NCBI GenBank assembly: GCA_965221195.1
Contig: OZ244864.1
Location: 2,006,219-2,070,218, forward strand
From: Candidatus Poriferisodalis sp.
GTDB lineage: Bacteria; Actinomycetota; Acidimicrobiia; Acidimicrobiales; Poriferisodalaceae
Direction of reading: 5' to 3'
Length of the DNA: 64,000 bases
Made by a program: the position numbers and the translations under genes. This document shows, piece after piece, positions 3,393 to 61,743 of this stretch (positions are counted from its first letter, which is position 1; each line of letters begins with the position of its first letter). The notes beneath the pieces were generated by a model that ran no database searches, was not told the origin of the DNA, and saw only the letters and a list, made by a program, of their open reading frames with translations.

Positions 3393-4706
3393 TCAGTCGC
3401 TGAGTTCGCTTTCGGTGACGACTGGTCGGCCCGACAGCACCGTGTGACGCACCCGGCCGGTGAGTGTCTGGTTGGCCCACGGAGAGTTGAGGCTGCGCGA
3501 TTGCAGCGACTCAGCATGCACGGTCCAAGTCTCAGCTGGGTCGAAGACGGCGATGTTGGCCGACGAGCCTGCCGCTATCGGCTGCCCGTGGCCGTCAATA
3601 CCGGCAATGCGCGCTGGTGCTGTTGAGACCGCCTCCACAAATCGCGCTGGAGTCATCTGGCCGCTGTTCACCAGTTCGCTCCATACAACAGCGGCCATGG
3701 TTTCGACGCCGATCATGCCCGGCGCCGCTTCGGCCAAGCTGCGGTCTTTGAGGGAGGGATGGTGCGGGGCGTGATCGGTTGCGACGGCATCGAGTGAGCC
3801 GTCTGCGATGGCGCGCCGCAGCGCCGTCACGTCGCTGGCCAAGCGCAGCGGGGGGTTCATTTTGGCGGTCGTGCCGAGGCGCGCTATGTCGTTTTCGGTG
3901 AGCACTAAGTGCTGCGGGGTGACTTCTGCTGTTACTGCAACGCCGTCTTGCTTGGCTTGGGCGACGAGATGCATCGCCTCAGCGGTGGACAGATGCAGTA
4001 CGTGATAGCGGCCGCCGGTGCGTCGGGCGAGTTCGATGTCGCGTTTCACCACCGAGATTTCTGCTGCAGCTGGCCGTCCGCGCAGCCCCAAACGTTCCGA
4101 GGTTGCGCCTGCGTTGATGACACCACCCGCGACCAGTGTTGGGTCTTCGGCGTGCTGGCTGATGACCGAACCAGCCAGCGTGACGGTCGCGCCGAGCGCT
4201 GCTTCCATGAGCGCATCGTCGGCTACGCAGTCTCCGTCGTCGGTGAAGACGCGCACACCGGTGGCGTACAGCGCCGCAAGGTCAACAAGCCGCTGTCCTG
4301 CACGGTCTGCGGTGACGCACGCCGAGGTGCGGACATCGCATGGCATGTCGGTGGCTAGCGCCAGCACCTCAGCAACCATTGCGGGGGTGTCGATCGGCGG
4401 GTTTGTGTTGGGCATCATCAAGCAGGCCGTCACTCCCCCCATAGCGGCACCCGCGGCGCCTGAGGCGATGTCTTCGCTCTCGGTTCCTCCCGGGGTGCGA
4501 AAATGCACCTGAATGTCAACAAAGCCGGGCATGACCCAAGCGTTTGATGCGTCTAGGTGCCGCCGAGCGGCTGGTGCTTGGCCTGCGGGCACAACAGCGG
4601 TGATGATGCCGCCGTCGATAACCACATCAACTGGCTCGCCGTCACCGCTGGTATCAGCCAGTCGACCCGCTGAGATCACCAGTTCCGCCGCCATGCCGTC
4701 CACCAT
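3393..4706 (-). CDS. dihydroorotase-like amidohydrolase (first His of the HxH metal motif is Gln)
   Basis: 437 aa with PGFVDIQVHFRTPGG, MMPNTNPP and ATDHAPHH motifs of class I dihydroorotases. It is not next to other pyr genes. Confidence 0.8.
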   Translation of the reverse strand: MVDGMAAELVISAGRLADTSGDGEPVDVVIDGGIITAVVPAGQAPAARRHLDASNAWVMPGFVDIQVHFRTPGGTESEDIASGAAGAAMGGVTACLMMPNTNPPIDTPAMVAEVLALATDMPCDVRTSACVTADRAGQRLVDLAALYATGVRVFTDDGDCVADDALMEAALGATVTLAGSVISQHAEDPTLVAGGVINAGATSERLGLRGRPAAAEISVVKRDIELARRTGGRYHVLHLSTAEAMHLVAQAKQDGVAVTAEVTPQHLVLTENDIARLGTTAKMNPPLRLASDVTALRRAIADGSLDAVATDHAPHHPSLKDRSLAEAAPGMIGVETMAAVVWSELVNSGQMTPARFVEAVSTAPARIAGIDGHGQPIAAGSSANIAVFDPAETWTVHAESLQSRSLNSPWANQTLTGRVRHTVLSGRPVVTESELSD

Positions 4707-4846
4707 ATGAGCTAGAAAGCCTATGAGCTAGAAGGCATATGAGCTAGCACGCTGATGAGTTCGACACAGAAGTGCTCACACCGTTCGACATGTTGCGTAC
4801 CGAGAGTGCCCAATTTGTCCTCAAAGATCAGAGTAGCTAACTGACG

Positions 4847-10629: not shown

Positions 10630-12193
10630 ATGGTGACGGGTGAACTGAAACGGCAGATCGATGCGGTGTGGAACGACTTCTGGTCGGGCGGCATCTCGAA
10701 CCCACTGGAGGTGATGGAGCAGCTCACCTATCTGCTGTTTGTCAAAGCGCTCGACGAGCAGCAGACCTTGGCTCACAATAAGGCGAACCGCACGGGCCAG
10801 CCGATCCCTGCCGACGACGACATCTTCCCCGACGGCGGGCAGTTCCGGCCCGAGGGCCGTGCTGATGCCCGTCCGTACAGCGATCTGCGCTGGTCACAGT
10901 TCAAGCACCTTCCGGCTGCTGAAATGTTTGATGTCGTTGAGAACTACGTGTTCCCCTTCTTGCAGGCACGGGCCGCCAAGAGCACCCACGCGCAGCACAT
11001 GCGCGACGCCCGGCTGACGATCCCCACGGCGACGCTCCTGCAGAAGGCTGTCGATGGGCTAGATGCAGTCGAGATGGCCGACCGCGACACCAAAGGCGAC
11101 GTGTATGAGTACATGCTCTCCAAGATCGCCACCGCCGGCCAAAACGGGCAGTTCCGCACACCGCGGCACATCATTGAACTGATGGTTGAGATGACCGCCC
11201 CCCAGCCAGACGACACCATCTGCGACCCCGCCAGCGGCACCTGCGGGTTCTTGGTGGGCGCCGGGGAGTACATCCGGCGTGAGCATCCGAGCGTGCTCAC
11301 CGATCCCAAGGGGTCGATGCATTTTCACAACAAGATGTTCTCGGGCTACGACTTTGACAACACGATGCTGCGCATCGGATCGATGAATATGCAACTCCAC
11401 GGCGTGCAGAACCCGCGTATCAGCTACCGAGATTCGTTGGCCGAAAGCCACGCCGATGACGCTGAGGCCTACAGTCTGATTCTCGCCAACCCGCCGTTCG
11501 CTGGCTCGCTCGACTATGAGGGCACCGCCAAAGACCTCTTGGCGGTTGCTCGCACCAAAAAGACCGAACTGTTGTTTATTGCGCTGTTTTTGCGGCTGCT
11601 CAAGCCCGGCGGACGAGCGGCGGTGATCGTGCCCGACGGGGTGCTGTTTGGTTCAACTAAGGCGCACAAAGAACTGCGCCGTATCTTGGTAGAAGACCAC
11701 AAGCTCGACGGCATCGTTTCGTTGCCAGGTGGTGTATTTAAGCCGTACGCCGGGGTTTCCACAGCGATCTTGCTGTTTACCAAAACTAACTCTGGTGGCA
11801 CCGACCTCGTCTGGTTTTACGACCTTCAGGCTGATGGTTACAGCCTTGACGACAAGCGCACTCCCCTGCTGGACGACGACAAGCTGGGCACAAAGGTTGA
11901 GTTGATTGCGGGGGGGGGGGGGGGGGCATTCCAAGAACAACCTGCCCGATGCACTCGCTCGTTGGAAGCAGCGTGACGGATCTGAGTTAGAGCGCTCTCG
12001 CACCGATCAATCGTTCTGCGTTCCCAAGGTTGACATAGCCGCCAACGATTACGACCTCAGCATCAACCGCTACAAGGAGATCGTCTACGACGAAATCGAG
12101 TACGAACCGCCGACTGTGATCCTCGACGAGCTTGCCGATCTCGAACGGGAGATCCTGGCAGGTATCGACGATCTAAAGGCAACCTTAGGATGA
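10630..12193 (+). CDS. hsdM: type I R-M methyltransferase subunit HsdM, reading frame broken at a G17 tract
   Basis: HsdM N-terminal domain (IDAVWNDFWSGGISNPLEVMEQLTYLLFVKAL), FRTPRHI and the NPPFAG catalytic motif. The frame from 10630 stops at 11976. The conserved HsdM C-terminus (NNLPDALARWKQRD...NDYDLSINRYKE) continues in the next frame to 12193. Removing one G restores a single ORF. Confidence 0.85.
11910..11926. repeat. homopolymer G17 inside hsdM
   Basis: Counted directly: the g at 11910 plus 16 further g up to 11926. Confidence 0.95.
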
Positions 12194-13155
12194 GGGGACA
12201 ATTGAGACTCGTCATCGATCGAGCGTTCGATGAACTCTGGCAGCCACTTACGAATCACGATGACTGCCCTGCGAGTGTTTTTGGTGAGGTTTTTACTGGC
12301 TTGCGCCCATTCCTTCGTGAACCTGAACCGGAGTTCGTAAAAGAAGAAGACAACGGCCCAATTCGCAACAAAGCCACCAACTTCGACGATCAAGCCTTAT
12401 GTGCAATGAGTGACCCGAAGACCGCCGAAATTCTGCTGAAAAACTTATCAAAGGAGAGTTTCATATCGGAAAATGACACCCGCCGAGCCGCCAGTAGCAC
12501 TTGGGAGATTCTTGTCGATATCGCAACCGAAGATCTTGCGAAAGAATACGTGAGCCTTCTTAAGAATTTTATTGAACGTTATAACTTGCGCTACTATGTT
12601 GGCGAGAATGCCCAACTCTGGATTTCTTTTTCTGGACTTGCTACATCGCTGTTCGGCCAACTCCGCTTTATAGCGCAGGGTCATCCTCATCTTCTACAAC
12701 AGCTTAACGAATTCGAACAGACATTAGCTGAATGCCTGAATCAACCTTCAGAGAATCGAATCAAGACCTCGATCCAAAAACAAACGAACCTGCTGGAAGC
12801 CTTCGGTTCACAAAACGGCCTCATTTCTGGCAACACGCTCGGGGCTATGCTCGATCAGGCAAATAACTGGCCGCACACCAGTCTTTGCGATGCCGCGAAA
12901 AATTTATACAAGTTTGCGTCTGATTATCCAGGTATTCGTCACGGAGGTAACTTTGACTCATCTAATCGCGCACTGGACCTGCGTGATCTCAGCAGCGTCA
13001 CGCTTTCACTCGTCGGACTCGCCGCGTACATGGCTGACGGTTTTGAGGAGCAAGTTGCCTCCGCCATACAGGGTGACCTTCTTCCAACCGTCACTCTTAG
13101 CAGTGTTGCAACGCCTTCGCCTCCAACATGTAGAGACAAGACGAACCAACTATGA
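12190..13155 (+). CDS. hypothetical protein embedded between hsdM and hsdS (low GC)
   Basis: 321-aa ORF. ATGA overlaps occur at both ends (12190-12193 with the hsdM stop, 13152-13155 with the hsdS start). It is visibly AT-richer than its neighbours, and I recognise no family. Confidence 0.7.
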   Translation: MRGQLRLVIDRAFDELWQPLTNHDDCPASVFGEVFTGLRPFLREPEPEFVKEEDNGPIRNKATNFDDQALCAMSDPKTAEILLKNLSKESFISENDTRRAASSTWEILVDIATEDLAKEYVSLLKNFIERYNLRYYVGENAQLWISFSGLATSLFGQLRFIAQGHPHLLQQLNEFEQTLAECLNQPSENRIKTSIQKQTNLLEAFGSQNGLISGNTLGAMLDQANNWPHTSLCDAAKNLYKFASDYPGIRHGGNFDSSNRALDLRDLSSVTLSLVGLAAYMADGFEEQVASAIQGDLLPTVTLSSVATPSPPTCRDKTNQL

Positions 13156-14339
13156 CAGGATTTTCTGGGTTCGAAGAAATGACAGATGACGTGAAGTGGC
13201 CCATAGTGCCCGTTCGAGATGTAGCCACCGCAGAAAGGAATGCAGTTTCAGCGGATCAGGTCCACGGAGATGAGTTGTACGTTGGATTGGAGAATGTGAC
13301 TAGTGACGGAGTCTTCGAAAACGTGGTAGTTGCAAGCAAGGCAAACTTGAAGAGTAACAAATTCGCGTTTACGGAGGATCATGTGCTCTACGGCAAGCTA
13401 CGCCCGTACCTCGCCAAAATAGCCGCACCTGACTTCGCTGGCATCTGCAGCACCGACATACTCCCTATTAGGCCAAGTACCAGACTTGACCGCCGCTACC
13501 TGCTGTATTTTCTGCGAACACCGATGATGGTTGCCCGTGCGGCGAGCAATGCCGTGGGGATAAATCTTCCCCGACTGAACCCGAAGACATTGGAGTCATT
13601 CGAGATTCCGTTGCCGCCGATTGGGGAGCAGAGGCGGATTGCGGCGATATTGGATGCGGCTGATGCTCTCCGAGCGAAGCGTCGTCAAACTCTCGCCAAG
13701 CTCGACGATCTGACGCAATCAATCTTCCACGAACAGTTCATTCGTGCGAACGGGTGGCCGGGTTCGTTGGACACGACACTTGGTGAGATAGCGGAGATTG
13801 TATCAGGCTCGACACCCAAAACCGGTGTCGAGCGTTACTGGAACGGTGATGTCTGGTGGGCGACACCGAAGGACCTAAGTGAAATCACGAGTCCGTATAT
13901 CGATGCTACTGAGCGCACGCTGTCTGAGGCTGGCCTCCAGAGCTGCTCTGCCTCCGTCTTGCCTGCCCATTCCGTCCTCTTGAGTTCGCGGGCCCCAATC
14001 GGATACGTAGCTATCAATACTACCCCCATGGCCACCAACCAAGGATTCAAGAATTTCGTCCTTGATTCGAAGTGTGTCGATCCTAGGTTTCTCTATTCTT
14101 GGTTGCGTTTCCACCGTCCACAGCTGCAGGCAATGGGAAGTGGTGCGACCTTCAAAGAGATATCCAAGAGAACCGTCTCTTCGGTACCGATTCGCTTGCC
14201 GACAATCGAGAAACAACGTGAATTTGGCGAGGTGTTTGACAAGGCCGAGGCGCTGCGAATCACAGCGGAACATGAATTGACGATGCATGACACGTTGTTT
14301 GCTTCACTACAGCAGCGGGCGTTTCGGGGGGAACTGTGA
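13152..14339 (+). CDS. hsdS: type I R-M specificity subunit HsdS
   Basis: 395 aa with two target-recognition halves separated by a conserved helix (LPPIGEQRRIAAILDAADALRAKRRQTLAKLDDLTQSIF). The C-terminal helix is LPTIEKQREFGEVFDKAEALR. Confidence 0.85.
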   Translation: MTGFSGFEEMTDDVKWPIVPVRDVATAERNAVSADQVHGDELYVGLENVTSDGVFENVVVASKANLKSNKFAFTEDHVLYGKLRPYLAKIAAPDFAGICSTDILPIRPSTRLDRRYLLYFLRTPMMVARAASNAVGINLPRLNPKTLESFEIPLPPIGEQRRIAAILDAADALRAKRRQTLAKLDDLTQSIFHEQFIRANGWPGSLDTTLGEIAEIVSGSTPKTGVERYWNGDVWWATPKDLSEITSPYIDATERTLSEAGLQSCSASVLPAHSVLLSSRAPIGYVAINTTPMATNQGFKNFVLDSKCVDPRFLYSWLRFHRPQLQAMGSGATFKEISKRTVSSVPIRLPTIEKQREFGEVFDKAEALRITAEHELTMHDTLFASLQQRAFRGEL

Positions 14340-17300
14340 GCGGGTCGCAGTTCTCGTTTCTCGAAGCTGAGTTTCAGCCGCAGTTCGGTGCAGCGGCTCG
14401 GGCTGAGGGCTACACCCTGTCCGACCCCGGCGCAGCGGTGATCTATGCACGCAAATGCCTGGAGTCAGCCGTCACATGGATGTACCAGCACGACCCGTCG
14501 CTGCCTGCGCCGTACGATGACACGCTCGGTGCACGGCTGAACAACCCAGCTTTCCAAGCACTCGAAGATGGTCGCATTTTTGAGGCGGCACGCAAGGTTC
14601 AGCGAGCCGGCAACCGTGCAGCACACGAATCGAAAGCGCCGTCGAAGCTCGAAGCGGTCGAGGTCGTCTCGGCGCTGTTCGGGTTCTGTCTGTGGTTCGC
14701 ATTCACCTACGGGCGCGCATCGAAGCCTGATCCGTCGCAGCGGTTCAACCCGCACCTGCTGCTCGACGCGGGTGAAGCCGAGCGGGCCTCGCTGCGCCAG
14801 CGCCAAGAACTCGAGCAACGTCTTGAGCGCGAGTCTGCCGAGCTTGCCACTGCTCAGCAGCGACTGGCCGAATCGACACGCAGCGCTGAAGAACTACACA
14901 CCGAGCTGGCGAATCTGCGGGCAGAGGTGGCCGCTGCCAAGAAGCAGGCAGCCGAGACCGTCCCGCCCGACGCGTTCGACTGGTCTGAAGCCGAAACTCG
15001 CAAGTTCAAGATCGATGCGCTGCTGGCCGAAGCCGGTTGGACCGATCTCGCCGAAGGCCGCGACACCGAATACGAAGTGCATGGCATGCCGTCGGAGTCG
15101 GGCGTTGGCTACGTCGACTATGTGCTGTGGGGTGCCGATGGCAAACCGCTCGCCGTGATAGAGGCCAAGAAAGCCTTAGCCGATCCGAAGATCGGCACCC
15201 AACAAGCCAAGCTGTATGCCGATTGTTTAGAAACCGAGACCGGCCAACGGCCAGTCATCTACGCCAGCAACGGTTATGAGCATTGGCTGTGGGACGACAC
15301 CCAGTATCCACCTCGCCAAGTGCAAGGGTTCTGCACCCGCGACGAACTGGCTTTGCTCATTGCGCGGCGTACGGCTCGCATGTCGCTGGCGTCGCTGGAC
15401 GTAGACGGGCAGATCGTTGACCGTCACTATCAGCGGCGAGCGATCAGCGCCATCGCCGAGCACTTCGAGCACGCCAACCAGCGCAAGGCACTGCTGGTGA
15501 TGGCCACCGGCGCAGGCAAAACCCGCACGGTGATTGCTTTGACGGATCTCTTGATGCGAGCCGGATGGGTGAAGCGGGTGCTGTTTTTGGCGGATCGCAC
15601 AGCGCTCGTACACCAAGCCGCACACGCCTTCAAGACGCACCTACCCAATGCGGCACCGGTGAACTTGGTGACCGAACCCAACGTAGACGGACGAGTGTAT
15701 GTATCTACCTATCAGACGATGGTCGGCAAGATCGACGAGTATCGGCGCAACGGCATTCGCCGGTTCGGTGTGGGGTATTTCGACTTGGTGGTTATCGATG
15801 AAGCGCACCGGTCGGTGTATCGCAAATACCGGGGCATCTTCGACTATTTCGACTCGTTGCTGGTGGGCCTCACTGCGACCCCCAAAGACGAGGTCGACAA
15901 GAACACCTACGACTTGTTTGATCTTGAGACTGGCGTGCCCACCGACGCGTATTCACTTGAAGATGCCATTGGTGACGACTATTTGGTGCCGCCTCGGGGC
16001 GTGTCGGTTGAACTCAAGTTCGTGCGTGAAGGCATCAGATACGACGAACTCTCCGATGACGAGAAAGACACTTGGGACGAACTCGACTGGGGCGAAGATG
16101 ATGAGGGCGATCCCCTAGCGCCGCCAGAGGCCGTTGATGCCGCCGAACTCAACAAATGGTTGTTCAACCGCGACACCGTCGACCGGGTGCTCGAATACCT
16201 GATGGTCGAGGGCATTAAGGTAGCTGGTGGCGACCGGCTCGCCAAGACGATCATTTTCGCCAAAAATCAAAAGCACGCCGAGTTCATAAAAGAACGCTTC
16301 GATGCCAACTATCCAGCCCTCGATGCTGGCAATTTCGCGCGGGTTATCACCCATCAGACGAGCTACGCCCAGAGCCTGATCGACGATTTTTCCAACAAAA
16401 CCAGGTCGCCGCATATCGCTATCAGCGTTGACATGCTCGACACCGGCATAGATGTGCCCGAGGTCGCCAACTTGGTGTTTTTCAAGCCGGTGCATTCCAA
16501 GACCAAGTTCTGGCAAATGTTGGGCCGCGGCACCCGACTGTGCGCCGACTTGTTCGGCCCCGGTGAGCGCAAGACTCACTTCAACGTGCTTGACTTCTGC
16601 GGGAACCTCGAGCATTTCAACCAGCCACTGGCGCCAGCAAAGACATCGAGCGGACGTTCGCTCAGCGAGATTTTGTTCTCGACCCGTCTGGAATTGTTGA
16701 GCACACTCGACGCGCTGGCGGGCTTCGGCGATGAGCGAGTGGAGGTTGCGGCGACGCTGCAACAGGCCGTGGCGTCGATGAACCCCGACAACTTCTTAGT
16801 GCGCCCGCACTTGGAGCTAGTTGAGCGGTTCAGTGCGCCAGAAGCGTGGGAAACAGTATCGCTGGCGGACTTGGCCGAACTCAACGAGCGGGTGGCCAGC
16901 CTTGCTGACCAGCTCAACGCCGACCACGAAGACGCCAAATGCTTCGACGTGGTGATGCTGAATGCGCAGTTGGGTCTGCTGCGAAGCGAGCCCAAGCCGT
17001 TTGAGCGACAGCGGCAGCGAGTCATGCGCGTGGCATCCGCCTTGGCCGACTTGGGCACATCCATTCCCGTGGTGGCTCAGCAACAAGAACTGATCGCAGA
17101 CATACAGACCGACGAGTGGTGGACCGATGTCACCTATCCGATGCTCGAAGATGCCCGCAAGCGATTGCGGAACCTCACTCAGCTCATCGTTCGTGCCGAC
17201 AAAAAGGTTCTCTACAGCGACTTCGCCGATGAGTTCGGCGGTGCCAGTGTGATTGACCTGCCCGGCGGTGGCAAGCCGGGCGGCAGTCACGATGTTGCCG

Positions 17301-17785
17301 ATGACAGCAGTGATGAGTTCGCACAGTTCCGCCGCAAGGCGCAGCATTTCTTGAAGGAGAACCTTGCCGAAGGTGTCGTAGCCAAAGTTCGCAGCGGCGA
17401 GCCGCTCACCCAGCACGACATGGATGAACTCCAGCGAGTGCTGGTGGCCGCCGGCATCGGCGACGACTCAACGTTCGCCAAGGCATCACGGCGGGCTGGC
17501 AGCTTTGGGTTGTTTGTCCGCTCGCTGGTGGGGCTCGACCGAGCCGCTGCCAAGCGCGCCTTTGCCAAGTTCCTCAACGACAAGCGCTACAGCGTCAACC
17601 AGATCCGCTTCGTGGAGCTGGTGATCGATTACCTCACCGAACATGGCACCGTAGAGCAACACCGCGTCTACGAATCGCCGTTCATCAGCGTCGCCCCACA
17701 AGGACCCGACGCCATCTTCGTATCCGACGACCTCGAAGAGTTCTTCAAAATCGTCGACCAATTCCACAAAACCGCCGCTGTTTAG
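14336..17785 (+). CDS. hsdR: type I restriction enzyme R subunit HsdR with N-terminal DUF4145/HEPN-like domain and coiled coil
   Basis: 1149 aa. The N-terminus has AARKVQRAGNRAAHE (DUF4145-like), followed by a coiled coil. The nuclease core is GYVDYVLWGADGKPLAVIEAKK. Helicase motifs are MATGAGKT, VIDEAH and GLTATP. GTGA overlap with hsdS. Confidence 0.9.
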   Translation: MSGSQFSFLEAEFQPQFGAAARAEGYTLSDPGAAVIYARKCLESAVTWMYQHDPSLPAPYDDTLGARLNNPAFQALEDGRIFEAARKVQRAGNRAAHESKAPSKLEAVEVVSALFGFCLWFAFTYGRASKPDPSQRFNPHLLLDAGEAERASLRQRQELEQRLERESAELATAQQRLAESTRSAEELHTELANLRAEVAAAKKQAAETVPPDAFDWSEAETRKFKIDALLAEAGWTDLAEGRDTEYEVHGMPSESGVGYVDYVLWGADGKPLAVIEAKKALADPKIGTQQAKLYADCLETETGQRPVIYASNGYEHWLWDDTQYPPRQVQGFCTRDELALLIARRTARMSLASLDVDGQIVDRHYQRRAISAIAEHFEHANQRKALLVMATGAGKTRTVIALTDLLMRAGWVKRVLFLADRTALVHQAAHAFKTHLPNAAPVNLVTEPNVDGRVYVSTYQTMVGKIDEYRRNGIRRFGVGYFDLVVIDEAHRSVYRKYRGIFDYFDSLLVGLTATPKDEVDKNTYDLFDLETGVPTDAYSLEDAIGDDYLVPPRGVSVELKFVREGIRYDELSDDEKDTWDELDWGEDDEGDPLAPPEAVDAAELNKWLFNRDTVDRVLEYLMVEGIKVAGGDRLAKTIIFAKNQKHAEFIKERFDANYPALDAGNFARVITHQTSYAQSLIDDFSNKTRSPHIAISVDMLDTGIDVPEVANLVFFKPVHSKTKFWQMLGRGTRLCADLFGPGERKTHFNVLDFCGNLEHFNQPLAPAKTSSGRSLSEILFSTRLELLSTLDALAGFGDERVEVAATLQQAVASMNPDNFLVRPHLELVERFSAPEAWETVSLADLAELNERVASLADQLNADHEDAKCFDVVMLNAQLGLLRSEPKPFERQRQRVMRVASALADLGTSIPVVAQQQELIADIQTDEWWTDVTYPMLEDARKRLRNLTQLIVRADKKVLYSDFADEFGGASVIDLPGGGKPGGSHDVADDSSDEFAQFRRKAQHFLKENLAEGVVAKVRSGEPLTQHDMDELQRVLVAAGIGDDSTFAKASRRAGSFGLFVRSLVGLDRAAAKRAFAKFLNDKRYSVNQIRFVELVIDYLTEHGTVEQHRVYESPFISVAPQGPDAIFVSDDLEEFFKIVDQFHKTAAV

Positions 17786-18267: not shown

Positions 18268-19014
18268 ATGGCCGATAAGTCAGCCATCGAGTGGACCGAA
18301 GCGACATGGAACCCGACCACGGGCTGCGATCGCACCTCGCCGGGCTGTGACAACTGCTATGCGCTCGCTCTGTCGAAGCGGTTGAAGGCGATGGGTTCGC
18401 CCAAGTACCAGAACGACGGCGACCTAGCGACGAGCGGGCCGGGCTTCAGGCTGACCCTCCATCCTTCGTCGCTTGACGTGCCGAAGCGATGGAATGCTCC
18501 CCGCCTTGTCTTTGTGAACTCAATGAGCGACCTTTTTCACGAGGACGTGCCTGTCGAGTTCATCGCGCAGGTCTTCGCCGTGATCCGCCAGACACCTCAG
18601 CACACCTACCAAGTGCTCACCAAGCGGGCGCAGCGCTTGAGCCGAATCGCCGGCGATCTGGACTGGCCGTCGAATCTGTGGATGGGCGTGAGCGTGGAGA
18701 CTCGCCGATACGCGTTCCGCGTCAATCATTTGCGCAAAGTGCCCGCTGCTGTCAGATTCGTCAGTGCCGAGCCGTTGCTCGGCCCGCTGGGCGACCTGAA
18801 TCTCGACGGTATCCACTGGGTGATTGCGGGCGGCGAGTCCGGCATCAACGCACGGCCCATGGAACTTGACTGGGCCACAGAACTCCGCGACACCTGCACC
18901 TCCGCCGGCGTGTCGTTCTTCTTCAAACAGTGGGGCGGTAGGACACCCAAGGCCGGTGGGCGCGAACTCGAAGGTGAGTACTGGGACGAGGTGCCGCTCA
19001 GGTTGGCGAGCTAG
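18268..19014 (+). CDS. DUF5131 (phage Gp37/Gp68-like) three-Cys-motif protein
   Basis: MADKSAIEWTEATWNPTTGCDRTSPGCDNCYA is the characteristic N-terminus of this family (recalled). 248 aa. Confidence 0.8.
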   Translation: MADKSAIEWTEATWNPTTGCDRTSPGCDNCYALALSKRLKAMGSPKYQNDGDLATSGPGFRLTLHPSSLDVPKRWNAPRLVFVNSMSDLFHEDVPVEFIAQVFAVIRQTPQHTYQVLTKRAQRLSRIAGDLDWPSNLWMGVSVETRRYAFRVNHLRKVPAAVRFVSAEPLLGPLGDLNLDGIHWVIAGGESGINARPMELDWATELRDTCTSAGVSFFFKQWGGRTPKAGGRELEGEYWDEVPLRLAS

Positions 19015-19018
19015 GCCT

Positions 19019-20095
19019 GTGGCGGTTCCAACCGGAATTCTCTGGGAGCGCGATTCCCACACCGCTGCGAAGCACACACTGCTGCGCCGCTACTTGGAAG
19101 CTTGGTTTCCGATCATGGCCAAGCAGTTCATACACGAGGGAATCACCTTCCTTGACGGCTTTGCCGGGCCCGGCGAGTACACGAACGACCACGAGAGTTC
19201 GCCCACGATCGCCATGAACCAAGCGATGCGAGATGGGGTGACGCGATGGGGCACCCGAACACGGCTCGTGTTCATCGAGGCCCACGCCAAGCGCGCCGAG
19301 CATCTGCGAGAGCATCTCGATGCACGCTTTCCGCCGTCGATCAGGCCGCCCGGTCTGGTTGCCCAAGTGCATCCTGGCGAGTGCGCTGCTGTCTATGAAC
19401 GGGCCATCGCTGACATCGACGGTTGGACGGGTCCAGTGTTTGCGAACCTCGACGGCTGGGGTGCCGACACCGACTACGAGATCGTGCAGCGCATCGCGGC
19501 CCACCCGTCTTCGGAGGTGCCTGTCACCTTTCAGGATCAGTTCTTCGTCCGTTTCGCCGACGGCGACCAAGAAGCGGGCGAGCGTGTGTTCGGACATGCC
19601 GACTGGCGAAGTGTCGGCGGGTTGCCCACCGCTGAGAAAAAGCCGTTCCTGCTCAACCAGTACCGAAGCGGCCTCCATGCCGCGGGCTTCGACTATGTGC
19701 TGATCTTCGAGATGATCGATGAAGGTGGACACTCCCTGCATCAGTTCTTCGGTACCAAGAGCGATGTCGCCGTTGGCAAGTTCAAGGACGGGCTGTGGGA
19801 AGTCGACGGCATATCTGGCCAGAGCTTCCGAGATCCACGAGACCCCGATCAGATGGCTTTCGACTTTCTCGAGCCGGACTTCACAAGATTGGACGATCAG
19901 ATATTGAAGCTGCTGGACGACGGCGACCGCAGCATGGCCGATCTCTGCCGCCATTCCCTGCTTGAGACGATCTACAAGGAGACTCACGTCAAGCCGAGAG
20001 TTGACGCGCTTGTAACCAAAGGGAAGCTAGAGCAAGTCAGCGCAAGTCAGTCATACGAAAAACGCGTCTTTCGTCGAGCGCAGCAGTTGTTCTGA
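19019..20095 (+). CDS. TcmP-like partner protein of the three-Cys-motif protein
   Basis: In-frame GTG at 19019, 5 nt after the upstream stop. ILWERDSHTAAKHTLLRRYLEAWFPIM...FLDGFAGPGEY matches my memory of the three-Cys-motif partner family. The track ORF start at 18824 overlaps the upstream gene and is unlikely. Confidence 0.65.
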   Translation: MAVPTGILWERDSHTAAKHTLLRRYLEAWFPIMAKQFIHEGITFLDGFAGPGEYTNDHESSPTIAMNQAMRDGVTRWGTRTRLVFIEAHAKRAEHLREHLDARFPPSIRPPGLVAQVHPGECAAVYERAIADIDGWTGPVFANLDGWGADTDYEIVQRIAAHPSSEVPVTFQDQFFVRFADGDQEAGERVFGHADWRSVGGLPTAEKKPFLLNQYRSGLHAAGFDYVLIFEMIDEGGHSLHQFFGTKSDVAVGKFKDGLWEVDGISGQSFRDPRDPDQMAFDFLEPDFTRLDDQILKLLDDGDRSMADLCRHSLLETIYKETHVKPRVDALVTKGKLEQVSASQSYEKRVFRRAQQLF

Positions 20096-22883: not shown

Positions 22884-23130
22884 AGCGCCGACGGCCCACA
22901 CATCCCCCGACCCCATCGGGTGTGCAGCCCACGCAGTCAGCCCAGTTCACGCAGTCAGCCCAACCCACGCAGTCAGCCCAACCAAATCTGCTAATGATGT
23001 TGCCTAACAGCAAGTCTCAGTTAATTCAGTTGCTTTTACGTATGCTCATCTGCTGGTCTGTCCGCATGACATCACACCGACAATTTTCCCGTATAGTTCC
23101 CTATACAACACCGACGATCGGAACCAGCAG

Positions 23131-25208: not shown

Positions 25209-25218
25209 CCCCCCCCCC
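25209..25218. repeat. homopolymer C10 upstream of the type ISP-like gene
   Basis: Counted directly. It lies 27 nt upstream of the ATG at 25245. Confidence 0.9.
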
Positions 25219-25354
25219 ACACACCCAAAACCCAGAAATCTCAGATGAACGAAACAGCCCCACAACAGTTAGAGACCGCCGCTGGCGAGGTCACTGACGA
25301 AACCGCTGGCGGGGTCACGGTTATTGCGTCTGCGACGCGCGGCATGCGTCGTGA

Positions 25355-28300
25355 AGACATCGACTTGGCATCGTTGAATCTCCCCTTCGCCGACCCCCCA
25401 GATTTAGCCCCCCCCCCCCCCCCAGAGACTTAGCTTCTGAACCAGACGTCGAGAGCCTCGTCACGGTCGGTGAGGTCATTGAGCGCATTCGAACCACCAG
25501 CCGTGACGAACACGAAAAGGGGCGATGGTTTGAGGAACTTGTCAAGATCGTCTTCCTCAACAGCCCTACCTACGAGATTGAAGAGATTGAGCACTGGGGG
25601 CAATGGCGTGACCGCCAGCCACTAACAGGGCTCAGCCGCAAAGACACCGGCATCGATCTTGTCGCGCTCCACCGCAACGGCAGCCGTATCGCTATCCAGT
25701 GCAAGTGCTATGCGCCCACCCAGCGAATCGCCAAGCCTGACATTGATTCGTTTTTGAGCCAATCTCAGGTAACCGACGCGGCTGATCGGCCTGTCTTCGC
25801 GATGCGGTGGATCGTCACAACGTCGCCGTGGACTGATAACGCGGCGGCTCAGGTTGACAGCTTGGACGTAGGAGTTCGCCGGATCGACTTCTGTCAGCAT
25901 GAGTTTGAGAAGATCAGCGAGAAGCTGCAACGGCGGCCGGTGCGTGCGCCTTGGCCGCGTCAAAGCGAAGCCATCAACAAGGTCACCGAGGGGCTGTCGC
26001 ACCACGACCGCGGTCGGATGATCATGGCCTGCGGTACTGGTAAGACGTTCACTGCGTTGCGTATCGCGGAGAGCGTGGTGCCCGACGGCGGACGAATCGC
26101 GTTCGTGGCACCGAGCATCGCATTGGTGGCACAAGCACGCCGCGAGTGGCTGATGCATTCGCGGCGTCCGTTGGAGTGCGTCGTTGTGTGTTCTGATGAA
26201 TCCGCTGGTGGTCGCGCTGAGAGTGCCACAGCGATGCGCATCTGCGAGCTGGAATGTCCGGTGGACAGGTCGCCGGAACGGCTTGGGGCGATGCTTGACC
26301 CCGCCCGCGGCACCGACCTAACACGCGTGGTGTTTTGCACGTACCAGTCGCTACAGCATCTCCACGACGCTCAAAACTGCCATGCAGCCGGAGCGTTCGA
26401 TCTGGTGCTCTGCGACGAAGCGCACCGCACTACCGGGGCTGTGTCGGACGCAACCGGGGCTGCTCGAGAAAGCGGCTTTCAGCGTGTGCATGACAACGAC
26501 TGGCTGCGAGCCCGCAAGAGGCTGTACATGACGGCCACGCCCCGCATCTACACCACCTCTTCTAAGGCAGCGCTGGCAGGGCGCGGTATCGCAACCGTCG
26601 ACATGAGTGACATGCACATCTACGGCCCTGAGCTTGAGCGTTTGTCATTCAAGGAGGCAGTCGAGGGTGACCTGCTGGCCGATTATCGGGTGATTGTGCT
26701 GGGTGTCCATGAGGGAGCGATTCCCGCGGGTATGCGGCAGCGTCTCATTGACTTGGGCGACAAAACCGCCGAGTCGCAGGCCGCGAAGTCGCCATCCTCT
26801 CAGACGGGCTCGAAGCCGTTGGTGGTCACCATCGAAGACTTACAGCGACTGCTAGGCACCACGCTCGCTATCAACGGCATGACATCGGGTAGCGACTTGG
26901 AGGTCCCTGAGCGTTTAGATCGCATCATCGCGTTTGCTAACTCCATCGCGAGATCAAAGTTTTATGCCAAAGGTCTCACCGATTCGCAGTTGCGTGCTCT
27001 CATCACTCGCCGCCGACGCGCAGGCGGCGAAACCGAAGGCGCTACCAAAGTCGAGGCAACTCATCTAGACGGAACAGCGCCTGCCTTTGAACGCAGCGAG
27101 GAGCTACGCAAACTGGAACGAACCCGCACAGACCAGTGCTCGCGCGTGATCTGTAACGCGAAGCTGCTCACCGAAGGCGTGGATGTGCCGTCGCTGGACG
27201 CGGTGGTGTTTATGGAACCGCGTGACAGCCAAGTTGACATCGTGCAGGCCGTCGGGCGGGTTATGCGACGCGCGGAGGGCAAGAAGCTCGGCTACATCGT
27301 GATTCCGGTGCCGGTGCCGCCGGGCGCGGACTTGGCAACTGCACTCGAAACGGGCGGCAGCGGTTACGAATCGGTCGGTCAGGTGCTAAGAGCGTTGCAA
27401 GCTCACGACGGTCGCCTCGCTGAGACTCCTGCCCGTTTCGTCAAGGTTGGCGAGATCAAACCCCCCAAACCCACCCCCAACGGCGACACGGGCGGCGACA
27501 GCGACGTAGTACCCATCGACGATGGCGGGGAGGCCGCTCAGCTCAAGTTAGATCTGCACAAAGCGGGCGCTGCTATCTACGCGCATGTCGTTGCGGCGTC
27601 GGGCTTGGGGTCGGCGGGCAAGCTCGTAGCCGACGATCTCGGCATGGCTGTGGCGTTTGCTGGTGCCCGTTTCGCTGAAGGCAACCTCGCAGCGCCGCTA
27701 GCAGCAGCGCTCGGCGGCCTGACCGTTGACGACACCAACCAGAATGACATCTGCAAAGTCGCCGCGCTGGTGCTCATCAATGCCTGCCTGTTGCACCGGC
27801 GCTTGCGTGAGGTGCCTCGTTTTGGCGACATTGCCGACTTGGCCAGCGTGACTGGTGCTGGCGACCCAGCGGAGATCTTGGCTGCGGGTTGGGAACAGAT
27901 TCTTGACCATGATTATGAGCCGGTGTTTGGACCGGCGCTGTCGGTGCTGCGACAACTCCCACCGAGGCCGTTCGCTACCGAAGCGCTGCGGAGCTTGGCT
28001 GAGTGCGCTAACCGCACCGCCGACTCGCTCAGCGAGATGGGTTACGACCACGCAGGTCCGCTGTATCACCGCATTTTGCCCAACGCAGCCGCCTACGGCG
28101 CCTTTTACACCAAGAACCTGTCGGCGCTCATGCTGGCACGCCTGGCCATCAACCACGACTTCGCCGATTGGTCAGACCCAGAGGCGATTGCTGCTTTGAA
28201 GGTCATGGATCCTGCTTGCGGCACCGGCACGCTGCTGATGGCAGCGCTGCGAGTGCTCAAAGAACGCGTCCGTGAAGCCAGACACCAAACATCAGATACT

Positions 28301-29599
28301 GATAACACCAGCACGGCCTCCGACACCAGCACAGCCTCCGACTCCGGCGTCGTTGACCCTCACGAGACCGCCCTTCACAAGACAATCGTTGAGAACGTGC
28401 TGCACGGACTCGACATCAACTTGCCTGCCATTCAGTTCGCGGCCTCCAACTTCACCTTGGGTGCCCCCACTGTTGATTACCGCAAGATGAACCTGTTCAC
28501 GCTCCGTCACGGCCCACAACCCGACGGTTCGATGATGGCCGGAACGCTGGAAGTGCTCGGTTTCGCCGACACCGACGCGTCGCTTGCGAACCTGGTTCGC
28601 CACGCCAACGCTGCGTCCGTCGGCACGCAGTTGACAGATTCTGGAGCCGAGTTCCCGATCAGCGACATCGACTTGGTCATTATGAACCCTCCTTTCACCA
28701 ACAACGTGAAGAAGGGCTCACAGTTCTCACCGTCCGACAAGAAAGCCATGCAACAACACGAACTCGGGCTGCGCGACTCGCTGTTGCAAACCGATCCGAT
28801 TGCTGGCGCGACCATCGACGCAAACAGCATCCAGACCTACTTCACCCCAATAGTCGACCGCATGCTGAACACGCACAACGGGATATTGGCACTGGTATTG
28901 CCGACGACATTGTTCACCGGTTCATCAGCAACATTGCAACGTCGCTTCATCGCCAGCAAGTTCCACATCGAAACCATCATCACGTCACACGATCCCAAGC
29001 GCATCAACTTCTCTGAAAACACCGGCATTCACGAATGCCTGCTCGTCGCTCGCCGTCGTGGCAGCCAACCAAACACAGCAGCTAGCGATCCGCCTACACA
29101 GTTCGTGTCGTTAGCCAAAATGCCCTCAACGCCTGACGAAGCTCTCGCCGCAGCCGACGCAATTGCAAGTGGCGAACTCGGTGAGTGGGGCAACGTCACG
29201 CTGTGGCCATCTGAGCGTGTGCGCGACGGCGACTGGTCGCCGGTGCAGTGGTACGACGGCAGTCTCGCCGAAATCGCACTGTCGCTCGAAGCTGGCAACT
29301 TTGCGCCGTCCGCACTTGACGGCTCGCTGGCTGGGAAAACAGGCCTGAGTGGGCTGACTGGGTTGTCTAGCGGGGGGGGGGCAGATTCGGCCCTTCAGGC
29401 CAAGCAGTCCGAGGGGCCTTTGCGCTCTGCGGGCACACCACCGGATCGAACCCGACGGCCGAGCCGTACGCGGAGCATTCCAACAAATGAACGCGTAGAT
29501 GAAACCGCCAATGAACTCAAGCCAGCCCGCCAACGCCATGCCATCGGACCGGGGGGGCAACGCATTCAAGATGCCTTCGAGAAACGAATCACCCAGTGA
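25355..29599 (+). CDS. type ISP-like single-polypeptide R-M enzyme (Mrr-like nuclease + SF2 DEAH helicase + N6-adenine methyltransferase); no in-frame start before 25754
   Basis: The frame is open from 25355. Nuclease core: EKGRWFEELV...GIDLVALHRNGSRIAIQCK. Helicase motifs: ACGTGKT, LVLCDEAH, MTATPR. Methylase motifs: DPACGTGTLL and DLVIMNPPFT. The first ATG/GTG/TTG in this frame is at 25754, inside the nuclease domain. Confidence 0.8.
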   Translation, partial: RHRLGIVESPLRRPPRFSPPPPPRDLASEPDVESLVTVGEVIERIRTTSRDEHEKGRWFEELVKIVFLNSPTYEIEEIEHWGQWRDRQPLTGLSRKDTGIDLVALHRNGSRIAIQCKCYAPTQRIAKPDIDSFLSQSQVTDAADRPVFAMRWIVTTSPWTDNAAAQVDSLDVGVRRIDFCQHEFEKISEKLQRRPVRAPWPRQSEAINKVTEGLSHHDRGRMIMACGTGKTFTALRIAESVVPDGGRIAFVAPSIALVAQARREWLMHSRRPLECVVVCSDESAGGRAESATAMRICELECPVDRSPERLGAMLDPARGTDLTRVVFCTYQSLQHLHDAQNCHAAGAFDLVLCDEAHRTTGAVSDATGAARESGFQRVHDNDWLRARKRLYMTATPRIYTTSSKAALAGRGIATVDMSDMHIYGPELERLSFKEAVEGDLLADYRVIVLGVHEGAIPAGMRQRLIDLGDKTAESQAAKSPSSQTGSKPLVVTIEDLQRLLGTTLAINGMTSGSDLEVPERLDRIIAFANSIARSKFYAKGLTDSQLRALITRRRRAGGETEGATKVEATHLDGTAPAFERSEELRKLERTRTDQCSRVICNAKLLTEGVDVPSLDAVVFMEPRDSQVDIVQAVGRVMRRAEGKKLGYIVIPVPVPPGADLATALETGGSGYESVGQVLRALQAHDGRLAETPARFVKVGEIKPPKPTPNGDTGGDSDVVPIDDGGEAAQLKLDLHKAGAAIYAHVVAASGLGSAGKLVADDLGMAVAFAGARFAEGNLAAPLAAALGGLTVDDTNQNDICKVAALVLINACLLHRRLREVPRFGDIADLASVTGAGDPAEILAAGWEQILDHDYEPVFGPALSVLRQLPPRPFATEALRSLAECANRTADSLSEMGYDHAGPLYHRILPNAAAYGAFYTKNLSALMLARLAINHDFADWSDPEAIAALKVMDPACGTGTLLMAALRVLKERVREARHQTSDTDNTSTASDTSTASDSGVVDPHETALHKTIVENVLHGLDINLPAIQFAASNFTLGAPTVDYRKMNLFTLRHGPQPDGSMMAGTLEVLGFADTDASLANLVRHANAASVGTQLTDSGAEFPISDIDLVIMNPPFTNNVKKGSQFSPSDKKAMQQHELGLRDSLLQTDPIAGATIDANSIQTYFTPIVDRMLNTHNGILALVLPTTLFTGSSATLQRRFIASKFHIETIITSHDPKRINFSENTGIHECLLVARRRGSQPNTAASDPPTQFVSLAKMPSTPDEALAAADAIASGELGEWGNVTLWPSERVRDGDWSPVQWYDGSLAEIALSLEAGNFAPSALDGSLAGKTGLSGLTGLSSGGGADSALQAKQSEGPLRSAGTPPDRTRRPSRTRSIPTNERVDETANELKPARQRHAIGPGGQRIQDAFEKRITQ
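25408..25423. repeat. homopolymer C16 between the candidate start codons and the body of the type ISP-like gene
   Basis: Counted directly as 16 c. The upstream frame (ATG at 25245 or 25344) terminates at 25431-25433, and the enzyme frame is open from 25355. Confidence 0.95.
29372..29381. repeat. homopolymer G10 near the 3' end of the type ISP-like gene
   Basis: Counted directly. A G7 tract follows at 29551-29557. Confidence 0.9.
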
Positions 29600-29708
29600 G
29601 TGACTTGCCGCTATCCGCAACACATCAACTCGTACACGTCTCCGAACAGCGAGATGTAGGACCTGCCGGCCGTCGCATTCAAGACGCATTCGGGCCGGCG
29701 CTCAAACC

Positions 29709-30314
29709 ATGAACTACCACGCGTTCTGGTCGATTTCATCGAAACTGCGAAAGACGATGCGCGGCGCACCAGAACAGCGCATCGAACCGCGCCCCGGCAA
29801 AGAACGCCTAGCTGAGCGCTACTGGAACCAGCGAAGCCAACTTCTAGTGGCCAACAAGCACGACACCGTGTCAGGACGCCTCGTTGCCGTGTACAGCCGC
29901 GAACCTTCCGTCGGTTCTGGCTGGGTACCTGTATCAGTCAAAGACAGTGACGAAGCCAAGTCGCTCTGTGTCTGGTGGAATAGCACACCGGTCCGCATTT
30001 TGCTGTTGAGCCGCAGGTCCAAGAAACTCACTTATCCCTCGTGGTCGCTGGATCAACTGCGGAGCATCTCGGTGCCGTCACCCGACAATCCTGGGTGGGA
30101 TGCCCTTTTGGCAGCGTTCGAGCAGGCCTGCGACATCGAACTGCTGCCCCTAGGGGACGCAGAACACTGCCAAGGCAGACACATCATCGACACCGCCGCA
30201 GCGCGCATCTTGGGCGTGCCTGAAAGCACCATCGCTGACTGGCGCCGCCGCCTTGCCTGCGAGCCAACAATTTCCAACCGACCAGCAGAACCCGCAGCCA
30301 AACAACCACACTGA
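29709..30314 (+). CDS. 201-aa ORF, probably the displaced C-terminal part (or partner) of the type ISP-like enzyme
   Basis: Protein-like sequence (GRLVAVYSREPSVGSGWVPVSVKDSDEAKSLCVWWNSTPVRILLL...) in a different frame 110 nt after the upstream stop. No RBS is visible, and the region between is frame-scrambled. Confidence 0.55.
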   Translation: MNYHAFWSISSKLRKTMRGAPEQRIEPRPGKERLAERYWNQRSQLLVANKHDTVSGRLVAVYSREPSVGSGWVPVSVKDSDEAKSLCVWWNSTPVRILLLSRRSKKLTYPSWSLDQLRSISVPSPDNPGWDALLAAFEQACDIELLPLGDAEHCQGRHIIDTAAARILGVPESTIADWRRRLACEPTISNRPAEPAAKQPH

Positions 30315-32062: not shown

Positions 32063-32266
32063 CAGTAACTCCTGTGTGCCGTGCTAACCCAGTGTCGCGC
32101 CAACCCAGAAGTGTGAGCTTCTGGCCGTCGCTTCCTCGCCAGCCCAAACGAAGCTAGCGCGCTGAGTCGCTGGCACGCTGAGTCGCTGGCACGCTGAGTC
32201 AACAGCCGCTCAGCAAGAACCAGCACCACCATTTTCGTATCTATTGAGTTCGGACAGCCGAGACAG

Positions 32267-35082: not shown

Positions 35083-36339
35083 ATGACCGACACAGCACCC
35101 GTTGAAGACTGGGGCACCGACTACGACATCTTTGACTCCGGCTACGTGCGAGACCCAGCCCCGGTATGGGATGCGCTGCGGCAACGCTGCCCGATCGCCC
35201 ACACCGAACGTTGGGGCGGTTCGTTCTTGCCCACCCGCTACGACGATGTGCAGGCCATGGCGAAGATGGTCCCTGAGCTTTCCAGCCACGATGTGCTCGT
35301 CACTTCCGAGCCACTTGAGCCGATTGAGGCGGTTGCGCCGGACACAGAGCTAGCCGCAGACCCGATCATCGAGCCATACCGCAGCGATGCCGCACCGATC
35401 TCTGAGGACCCGCCTGTTCACAGCTGGACTCGGCGTCTGCTGCTGCCGCACTTTGCGCCTCGCGCAGTGGAATCTCACCGCCAGTACACCGAAGATCTGG
35501 CTCATCGTCTCATCGACGGGTTCATCGACAAAGGCCAAGTAGACGGCGCTGAGCACTACGCCCAGCAGATCCCGCCTCGGGTGATTGCCCACCTGCTGGG
35601 CATAGACGAAAACCGAGTGGACGAATTCACCTACTGGGTGCGCTGTGTGTTGGAGTTGGGTCTCACTCAACCGGAGCTGCGCCGCAAATACCGACGCGTG
35701 ATCCGGGAGTTCTTCTTTGAGGTCGTAGAAGAGAAACAAGCCAATCCCGACGACGGGTTCGTCTCGGCGCTGCTGGCAGGAACCGACGACGAGGGCAACC
35801 TCATCGACCCGGTCTTAGCGGTGGGCATGCTCAATCTGCAGCTCATCGCCGGAATCGACACCACCTGGAGCTCCATCGGCTCGGCACTGTGGCACTTTGG
35901 CACCCACCCCGCTGACCGCCACCGGATGGCGGCCGAGCCGGAACTGTGGCCCTCCGCCATCGAAGAGCTGCTGCGCTTCTACTCACCGGTGACCATGGGA
36001 CGCGTCGCTGTGCAGGATGTGAAAGTTCGCGACGTGACCATCCCCAAAGGCAGCAAGGTGTTGATGAACTTCCCCGGCGCCAACCGCGACCCAGAGGTCT
36101 TTGAGCGCCCCGACGAGGTCATATTGGATCGCCCGCACAACCGCCATGTTGCATTCGGTTCGGGCATCCACCGCTGCGCTGGCTCAAATCTGGCCCGACT
36201 GGAGATGGACGTTGCACTGCGCACATGGTTTGAGCGCATCGAAGACTTCGAGGTTGCCGAACCCGACAAAGTCACCTGGGCCGGAGGGCAAGTGCGCGGC
36301 CCACGGCACCTGCCGATCCGTTTCTCACTGGCACATTGA
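35083..36339 (+). CDS. cytochrome P450
   Basis: ATG at 35083 after GGAAGGGAGGG. EELLRF (ExxR) and the heme loop FGSGIHRCAGSNLA are present. Confidence 0.9.
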   Translation: MTDTAPVEDWGTDYDIFDSGYVRDPAPVWDALRQRCPIAHTERWGGSFLPTRYDDVQAMAKMVPELSSHDVLVTSEPLEPIEAVAPDTELAADPIIEPYRSDAAPISEDPPVHSWTRRLLLPHFAPRAVESHRQYTEDLAHRLIDGFIDKGQVDGAEHYAQQIPPRVIAHLLGIDENRVDEFTYWVRCVLELGLTQPELRRKYRRVIREFFFEVVEEKQANPDDGFVSALLAGTDDEGNLIDPVLAVGMLNLQLIAGIDTTWSSIGSALWHFGTHPADRHRMAAEPELWPSAIEELLRFYSPVTMGRVAVQDVKVRDVTIPKGSKVLMNFPGANRDPEVFERPDEVILDRPHNRHVAFGSGIHRCAGSNLARLEMDVALRTWFERIEDFEVAEPDKVTWAGGQVRGPRHLPIRFSLAH

Positions 36340-36499
36340 CCTGGCACATTGACCTGCCACCCTGAGTCTGCACCTTGAATTTGCACGTTGAGTCTGCGCT
36401 TTGAACAGGCAGGCGATGGCACCCGGCCTACGATTCGCTCATCACAGCAAGCAGCAATCAACCAAGCAATAGCGAGGTTCAAATAATGAGGTTCAAATC

Positions 36500-44313: not shown

Positions 44314-44410
44314 AGCCCAGTAGTTGGGACCCGTTTGCTATTGGGGCCTAGTAGCTGAGGCCCAGTCGTTGAGGCCCAGTCGTTGAGGCCCAGTCGCTGG
44401 GACCCGTTTG

Positions 44411-56857: not shown

Positions 56858-56923
56858 GGGTTGATCTTAGACGACACTGCAGCCAACACAAGCCTATTTT
56901 CCATGTGCCTCCCACAGCAGCGG

Positions 56924-61644: not shown

Positions 61645-61743
61645 CAATAGCGACTGTTTACTGTCAAAAGTATTCAACCAACAGCGAACGCAGTTCCCGA
61701 AAGCAGCCCAGTTACAGGGCAGCTCAGTTATAGGGCAGCCCAG

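Follow-up and report, generated by a model that had tools for sequence, protein, structure and literature searches.

A G17 tract within hsdM of a Candidatus Poriferisodalis type I restriction-modification operon: a candidate contingency locus

The hsdM gene, its tract and its operon

A 64,000-nt stretch of a Candidatus Poriferisodalis sp. genome (GCA_965221195.1, contig OZ244864.1, nt 2006219 – 2070218 of the forward strand; hereafter the window, within which all positions are numbered) carries hsdM, hsdS and hsdR in one locus, i.e. the gene set of a type I restriction-modification (R-M) system. The methylase gene, hsdM, is divided between two reading frames that meet in a run of 17 G residues, and this tract is the main subject of the present study. 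The relevant features are:

10630 – 11976 (+): hsdM open reading frame (ORF) as assembled, 448 aa, with HsdM_N and the N6-adenine methylase catalytic domain; its stop lies 16 codons past the tract
11910 – 11926 (+): run of 17 G, at which slippage is proposed to occur; the frame is kept at lengths of 13, 16 and 19
11927 – 12193 (+): post-tract part of hsdM, in a frame shifted by one, coding for the C-terminal helix and for two conserved motifs, NNLPDALARW and YDLSINRYK

The 448-aa product of the first ORF ends with ...LIAGGGGGAFQEQPARCTRSLEAA, directly followed by the stop codon, and the +1-shifted frame, which is open from the tract to nt 12193, encodes GGGGGHSKNNLPDALARW...YDLSINRYK...LKATLG. 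When the tract was edited computationally to 16 G, an uninterrupted HsdM of 520 aa was obtained (521 aa with 19 G), and lengths of 15 or 18 G gave a stop at 452 or 453 aa. The initial annotation of this region had given the same tract coordinates, the stop at nt 11976, the continuation of the C-terminus in the next frame and the 520-aa product at 16 G, all of which are borne out. As assembled, the C-terminal 87 residues of HsdM are not in the frame of the catalytic domain, and the two parts are joined only at 13, 16 or 19 G.

The repaired protein matches the Pfam families HsdM_N (1.3e-12) and N6_Mtase (3.7e-57), and the translation carries the S-adenosylmethionine-binding and NPPF motifs of such enzymes (DPASGTCGF, LANPPFAG). 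Its best solved relative is the type I methylase 5ybb (chain A; 6.7e-43, residues 84 – 515). The gene is therefore a member of the HsdM family by descent, even though it is not intact in the assembled sequence. In the alignment to 5ybb the tract region is a low-confidence loop, and the C-terminal segment comes next, paired with the corresponding C-terminal portion of that structure. The C-terminal HsdM helix is known from solved structures of type I methylases to pack against the coiled coil of HsdS. An AlphaFold2 model of the repaired protein, based on a 30-sequence alignment, reached a mean predicted local distance difference test score of 42, so that the tract loop is not placeable in the structure; the sole confident part of the model was the C-terminal helix (residues 494 – 519).

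A G run of this length is far outside chance expectation, as the number of runs of at least 17 G predicted for a 64-kb window of 60% G+C is 5.5e-5 under an order-0 model and 1.2e-6 under an order-1 model. GGG is a minor glycine codon in the genes of the window (107 of 837 Gly codons, 12.8%), and five consecutive GGG codons are thus not explained by a need for poly-Gly. The tract is a simple sequence repeat (SSR) of the kind surveyed in R-M genes by others, being a mononucleotide repeat of at least 9 residues, with a unit not divisible by three, inside an ORF (PMC7383803). Promoter and terminator scans around hsdM returned nothing above shuffled expectation.

Downstream of hsdM, the operon continues with three genes, each of which shares 4 nt with its upstream neighbour:

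12190 – 13155 (+): ORF of 321 aa between hsdM and hsdS, its ATG overlapping the hsdM stop (ATGA)
13152 – 14339 (+): hsdS, specificity subunit, with two Methylase_S stretches (Pfam)
14336 – 17785 (+): hsdR, complete, 1149 aa, with DUF4145, HSDR_N, ResIII, Helicase_C and EcoEI_R_C domains

The 321-aa ORF has no Pfam or NCBIfam match, and only a weak PADLOC match to the candidate family PDC-S32 (3.9e-6). The best NCBIfam match of hsdR is PRK11448 (type I R-M endonuclease), followed by EcoAI/FtnUII, both being under the curated cut-off. Neither hsdS nor hsdR is disrupted, each having its complete set of domains, and no other lesion is present in hsdM, hsdS or hsdR.

Two sets of relatives were compared with hsdM, namely the 29 closest proteins (79 – 86% identity), which come from metagenome-assembled genomes (MAGs) of Acidimicrobiaceae and Candidatus Poriferisodalis, and 80 related GTDB loci with their flanks (1.31 Mb in all). 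In the alignment of the 29 homologues, the tract sits in the sole poorly conserved, indel-bearing stretch of HsdM, which links the catalytic domain to the conserved C-terminal part (the consensus around it is LGALAxxxLTxxEHEKNNLPDALARW), and none of the 29 has poly-Gly at this position. At the DNA level, relatives have an ordinary CTGACnGnnGAnGAGCAC (coding for LT..DEH) where the window has pure G17. The protein alignment, 5ybb and the DNA alignment thus agree with the earlier placement of the tract in a linker before the conserved C-terminal region, and the comparison supports the view that G17 is not ancestral, having taken the place of the variable loop as a derived feature of this lineage.

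None of the 80 related loci carries a homopolymer of at least 9 nt inside hsdM, and across their combined 1.31 Mb such runs occur at one intergenic spot in one locus. Given their near-absence from these loci, long homopolymers are not produced by assembly in general, and they do not characterise the genomes as a whole either. The single spot (C14, C17 and C10 in locus L033) is unrelated to R-M; it is G+C-rich intergenic DNA beside a glycine-dehydrogenase-like gene, 8.5 kb from hsdM. A sister sequence carrying the hsdM tract was not found, as the protein search reached no more than 86% identity, the 80 GTDB loci were without a tract, and an exact-protein look-up was empty. A scan of Joint Genome Institute metagenomes with the tract flank plus G9 gave two matches, both from Ga0179593, which are unrelated to hsdM and were discarded. 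These sequences, 8 – 11 kb in length, consist mostly of poly-G and poly-A runs (including one G run of 104) and look like sequencing or assembly artefacts.

The post-tract codons of hsdM have a mean pN/pS of 0.27 (0.16 – 0.38, measured against eight relatives), compared to 0.37 among intact homologues over the same segment, and there are no stop codons among the 88 codons. Such values support continued purifying selection on this part of the gene, with no sign of decay. Together with the intact operon, the open and conserved post-tract frame indicates that the frameshift is recent, reversible or artefactual.

The closest GTDB relative of hsdM (L001:10001 – 11554; 85% identity, from the Acidimicrobiaceae MAG COS4_bin_1) is interrupted by an in-frame stop of its own, located between ...LDEQ and TLAEN..., which reflects either a sequencing error or a plain nonsense mutation in a pseudogene.

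A second R-M gene with homopolymer tracts

Besides G17, the only homopolymers of at least 7 nt in the window are C10, C16, G10 and G7, and all of them belong to a second R-M gene. The four window tracts of at least 10 nt all lie within or just upstream of R-M genes, and about 50 kb of metabolic genes are without any. No other frameshifting SSR was found inside genes of the window by Tandem Repeats Finder (TRF). The second gene is made up as follows:

25209 – 25218 (+): C10 tract, ending 27 nt before the start codon of the gene
25245 – 25433 (+): ATG-led 5' segment, which stops just past C16
25408 – 25423 (+): C16 tract; a length of C14 or C17 joins the 5' segment to the main frame (1450 or 1451 aa)
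25424 – 29599 (+): main frame, with Mrr nuclease, superfamily 2 (SF2) helicase and N6-methylase (type IIG/ISP-like; Pfam, PADLOC)
29372 – 29381 (+): G10 tract in the linker past the methylase domain, followed by G7 at nt 29551 – 29557
29709 – 30314 (+): separate ORF for a C-terminal domain that is fused to the main protein in relatives of the P0121 type

Pfam matches are to Mrr_cat_2 (3.5e-21), ResIII (7e-21), Helicase_C and N6_Mtase/Eco57I, and PADLOC gives REase_MTase_IIG (1e-129) and REase_MTase_I (8e-78). No target-recognition domain was identified. As assembled, the nuclease domain is not read in the frame set by the start codon, and the first start codon that the main frame itself offers is at nt 25754, beyond the nuclease motif. 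In the homologues P0121 and P0123 the N-terminal peptide is in frame with the rest of the protein, which indicates that the joined ORF is the native form of this gene. Scans for promoters and terminators upstream of it gave nothing above shuffled expectation.

The ~200-aa C-terminal domain is fused in loci L083 and L085, with 174 nt of a single frame covering WSPVQW to FWSIS; L081 and the window have it as a separate ORF behind an SSR-bearing insert of 250 – 316 nt. A motif coding for GPxGxRIQDAF is present in two copies in the window, in different frames (about nt 29540 – 29580 and 29660 – 29700).

The DNA of ten related loci of this gene was available, from assemblies of different naming styles and sources, some of the loci being close relatives and so not independent. 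A 5' poly-C is present at the same site in every one of them, and its length ranges from C7 to C16 across the eleven loci, including the window. Lengths and frame states, relative to the N-terminal peptide, are given for the following:

window: C16, out of frame
L081: C15, out of frame
L082: C14, out of frame
L083: C14, in frame, 1557-aa product
L084: C12, out of frame
L085: C15, out of frame
L086: C10, out of frame
L089: C7, out of frame
L090: C10, frame state not scored
L091: C10, frame state not scored

One of the eight scorable loci is thus in frame and seven are out of frame, which is not a significant departure from random phase (P about 0.2). The linker past the methylase domain is hypervariable, with G10 in the window and G11, G17, G23, (TC)6, (TC)11 or 21-nt repeats in relatives, some of which have no linker at all, and even among near-identical relatives each of the three frames is used past the linker SSR by one or other of the called proteins. 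Loci L086 and L089, which share 93% DNA identity, differ at both sites (C10 vs C7, and (TC)6 vs (TC)11), and the proteins called from them finish in different frames past the SSR. In one genome (4,441,744-bp contig), hsdM is without a tract, and the second gene carries C15 and G11.

On comparative grounds, long tracts in this clade are therefore heritable, specific to certain genes and of variable length, and not random assembly noise. The second gene shows the comparative signature of SSR switching, seen in this neighbour and not in hsdM itself. A comparison of sister genomes had been suggested for hsdM; no second hsdM tract was found in the collections searched, and relatives of the second gene differ in tract length and frame.

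An Illumina poly-G artefact was also considered as a source of G17. It was ruled out, both by the contiguous homologous coding sequence on the two sides of the tract and by the recurrence of the second-gene tract in assemblies of several projects.

A probable contingency tract in hsdM and its alternatives

We consider it reasonably probable (about 0.6) that G17 is a real, derived SSR which makes hsdM a slippage-prone contingency gene. Phase variation had been put forward for hsdM in the initial annotation, and as a candidate it gains from the derived nature of the tract, the selected post-tract codons, the intact operon and the presence of a second R-M gene split by tracts; variation in length is seen in that neighbouring gene only. 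In the organisms tested so far, mononucleotide tracts of 9 residues switch at about 1e-3 to 1e-2 per division (PMC7383803), and mismatch repair of the mycobacterial NucS type leaves indels of 1 – 2 nt uncorrected (PMC11551767).

In the proposed mechanism, slipped-strand mispairing at replication would add or remove G residues. At 13, 16 or 19 G, HsdM would be made at full length, its tolerant loop holding 4 to 6 glycines, and all other lengths would end the protein at 448 or 452/453 aa, minus about 87 C-terminal residues that include the HsdS-packing helix. With an OFF length, no M2S core would be expected to form, and neither methylation nor restriction should occur. HsdR acts only inside the R2M2S1 complex, and so an OFF hsdM should abolish both activities together; the proposal that the OFF state would uncouple methylation from restriction is not what type I biology predicts. 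The stop, situated 214 nt before the next start codon, would probably also lower translation of the coupled downstream genes. A population would then be a mix of cells with and without the R-M barrier, which may serve as bet-hedging against phage and against the cost of restriction, and possibly as an epigenetic switch.

Several points weigh against a contingency tract. In the collections searched, no second genome or read set carries the hsdM tract, and length variation at this site was thus not observed. The tract is located at 82% of the hsdM ORF, a position at odds with most hsdM SSRs, which are found in the 5' region (PMC7383803). The variable G/C tracts of Cutibacterium acnes follow clades, and the authors of that study favour slow accumulation over active switching (PMC4746626). 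The seven of eight second-gene loci that are out of frame would also fit gradual decay. Finally, PacBio circular consensus sequencing (CCS) recovers the original length of a homopolymer less often as the repeat number grows (PMC11878640), so that a long-read consensus is not a reliable guide to how many residues a 17-nt homopolymer has.

This last point leads directly to the alternative that 17 is a consensus miscall, the true or dominant length being 16 or 19 G, in which case hsdM would be an active gene with a poly-Gly loop and its frameshift an assembly artefact. The difference between 17 and 16 G is a single base, the post-tract frame is without decay, the window lies on a 2.69-Mb contig, the contig names of related genomes are typical of long-read metagenome assemblers, and length calls in CCS data degrade as homopolymers lengthen (PMC11878640). 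A common directional error is difficult to reconcile with the data, however, as the nearest in-frame corrections within the window are of opposite sign (–1 for hsdM, +1 for the C16 gene), and related second-gene loci would need +1, –1, –1, +1 and +1, so that no single bias repairs all of them. A C14 relative has its frame intact, and the second-gene tract is also present in scaffold-type assemblies of other projects. On this balance a miscall seems rather unlikely, and it touches the assembled state only, since a G16 tract would still be slippage-prone. Miscalling and true switching are not mutually exclusive. The ON/OFF state in this assembly cannot be trusted, both because homopolymer calls worsen with length (PMC11878640) and because a G17 population is expected to be mixed in any case.

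Less probable again is that hsdM is a plain pseudogene, in which mutation pressure enlarged the tract and fixed the gene out of frame, with the system being lost and no adaptive switching. The assembled length is indeed out of frame, as are the majority of second-gene loci, the in-frame stop of the L001 hsdM suggests that loss of the system does happen in the clade, and repeated R-M inactivation has been reported in C. acnes (PMC4746626). This explanation has to contend, though, with the lack of further lesions in hsdM, hsdS and hsdR, and with 88 open post-tract codons whose pN/pS is no higher than that of intact genes. Moreover, G17 would revert often, and could not keep the gene off permanently unless further mutations accumulated. 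A very improbable alternative is that the split gene is decoded productively, with slippage of RNA polymerase on G17/C17, or ribosomal frameshifting, yielding some full-length HsdM from a gene fixed out of frame, and the tract setting the level of expression instead of being a heritable switch. On either side of the tract both frames are conserved and free of stops, and by analogy such decoding could draw on long homopolymers as known sites of transcriptional slippage (Atkins et al. [quoted passage not shown]

If the G17 tract does switch, the type I R-M barrier of an uncultured symbiont would be stochastic and not constitutive, with consequences for the interpretation of phage, plasmids and methylation patterns in the MAGs of this clade. 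A tentative extension, falling short of even odds, is that sponge-associated Acidimicrobiia run a multi-switch defence and epigenetic system, in which each of several R-M genes of a genome would be gated by long tracts, either G/C or dinucleotide, hsdM by G17 and the fused gene by its conserved 5' poly-C and hypervariable 3' linker SSR. If true, the symbiont population in one host would be a mosaic of restriction and methylation states, and phasevarion-type biology would extend beyond mucosal pathogens, to marine mutualists in the Actinomycetota that are uncultured. Annotation pipelines will call such genes pseudogenes or N-truncated, as is already the case for several relatives of the second gene, and active defence systems could be missed in this way. 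The conserved poly-C site of the fused gene (eleven loci) provides a comparative system for the evolution of SSRs outside the classical pathogens.

Neighbouring features and known systems

Directly 3' of hsdR (nt 18268 – 20095, + strand) are genes for a DUF5131 protein and a three-Cys-motif partner protein, TcmP (PADLOC PDC-M30A, 2.6e-32). The DUF5131 protein resembles radical-SAM mobile pair protein A, but weakly and below the threshold. A type II methylase is encoded at nt 33195 – 34922 (– strand), and with it the 10.6 – 35 kb region has the look of a defence island. Elsewhere in the window, a near-perfect 19-nt tandem repeat, CCAAGCCATACAGCGCACG, occurs at nt 58962 – 59057 (5.1 copies, 97% matches; a unit that is not a multiple of three), upstream of an MMPL transporter gene (start at nt 59194). 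The ORF at nt 56027 – 57100 (+) contains a 75-nt repeat (nt 56301 – 56743; 5.5 copies, 84% matches) with a nested 21-nt periodicity. Short tandem repeats recur throughout (units of 11 – 18 nt, 2.5 – 4 copies, TRF scores of 60 – 100), many of them near the starts or ends of ORFs, e.g. at nt 1403 – 1444, 4704 – 4747, 22928 – 22983, 32160 – 32200, 36328 – 36397, 44341 – 44396, 52011 – 52061 and 61703 – 61755.

Poly-G/C switching had been described in the initial annotation as unfamiliar in G+C-rich actinobacteria, a statement that does not hold in view of the published work on B. breve, C. acnes and Mycobacterium tuberculosis (PMC9187656, PMC4746626, PMC10334774). The pilus genes of B. breve undergo homopolymer switching, as established by maximum-depth sequencing (PMC9187656), C. 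acnes has 54 variable tracts, nearly all of them G/C (PMC4746626), and homopolymer-based switching is also documented in Gardnerella (PMC11287997) and the M. tuberculosis complex (PMC10334774). The literature search returned no mention of Poriferisodalis, and no link of sponge symbionts with phase-variable R-M systems.

Among R-M genes, SSRs that satisfy the definition used for phase variation are found in 416 of the 20,849 hsdM genes in REBASE (2%), mostly in the 5' region (PMC7383803). The nearest counterparts are the hsdM genes of Haemophilus influenzae, with CGAGA(n), and Mannheimia haemolytica, with ACAGC(n) (Atack et al., FASEB J 2019/2020, PMC7383803). In these, as here, a non-triplet repeat lies inside the hsdM of a complete type I operon, and its length toggles between full-length and truncated methylase, as would be expected for the G17 gene. 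Their repeats are pentanucleotides, whereas the present tract is a homopolymer at 82% of the ORF, in a loop before the C-terminal helix; and these species are host-adapted pathogens, while the present organism is an uncultured, probably sponge-associated member of the Acidimicrobiia. Poly-G tracts in hsdS (M. haemolytica, and G12 in Salmonella; PMC7383803) share with G17 the nature of the repeat, its presence in a type I R-M gene and its location in a linker between folded modules. A frameshift in hsdS changes specificity, by producing a half-size or a full HsdS, whereas that in hsdM removes the HsdS-binding end and should switch the whole system off.

The sortase-dependent pilus G-tracts of B. 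breve (Penno et al. 2022, PMC9187656) are similar in that they are intragenic in a G+C-rich actinobacterium, and the gene concerned (G11 in bbr_0113) is annotated as frameshifted. In that species, in-frame subpopulations arise by replication slippage and switching was measured directly, whereas here it is inferred; the target there is a surface adhesin with a shorter tract, and here an R-M gene. The homopolymer tracts under discussion in M. tuberculosis are short. Indels in G/C homopolymers repeatedly silence and restore genes in both the M. tuberculosis complex and C. acnes, which are also Actinobacteria, but homopolymer variation is not described there as affecting R-M genes (PMC10334774, PMC4746626). 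The second gene of the window resembles the fused type ISP and type IIG enzymes in coding for an Mrr-family nuclease, an SF2 helicase and a gamma-class N6-adenine methylase; these enzymes have all three in one polypeptide, as would the product of the window gene at C14 or C17. It is unlike them in its conserved 5' poly-C, and in its hypervariable SSR linker, which cuts off a C-terminal ORF of ~200 aa in some genomes. The G17 tract of hsdM is accordingly a further case of the SSR-bearing R-M genes, already known as a type, and is somewhat unusual in its 3'-proximal position and in its co-occurrence with a fused R-M gene that bears multiple SSRs and is itself conserved in the clade.

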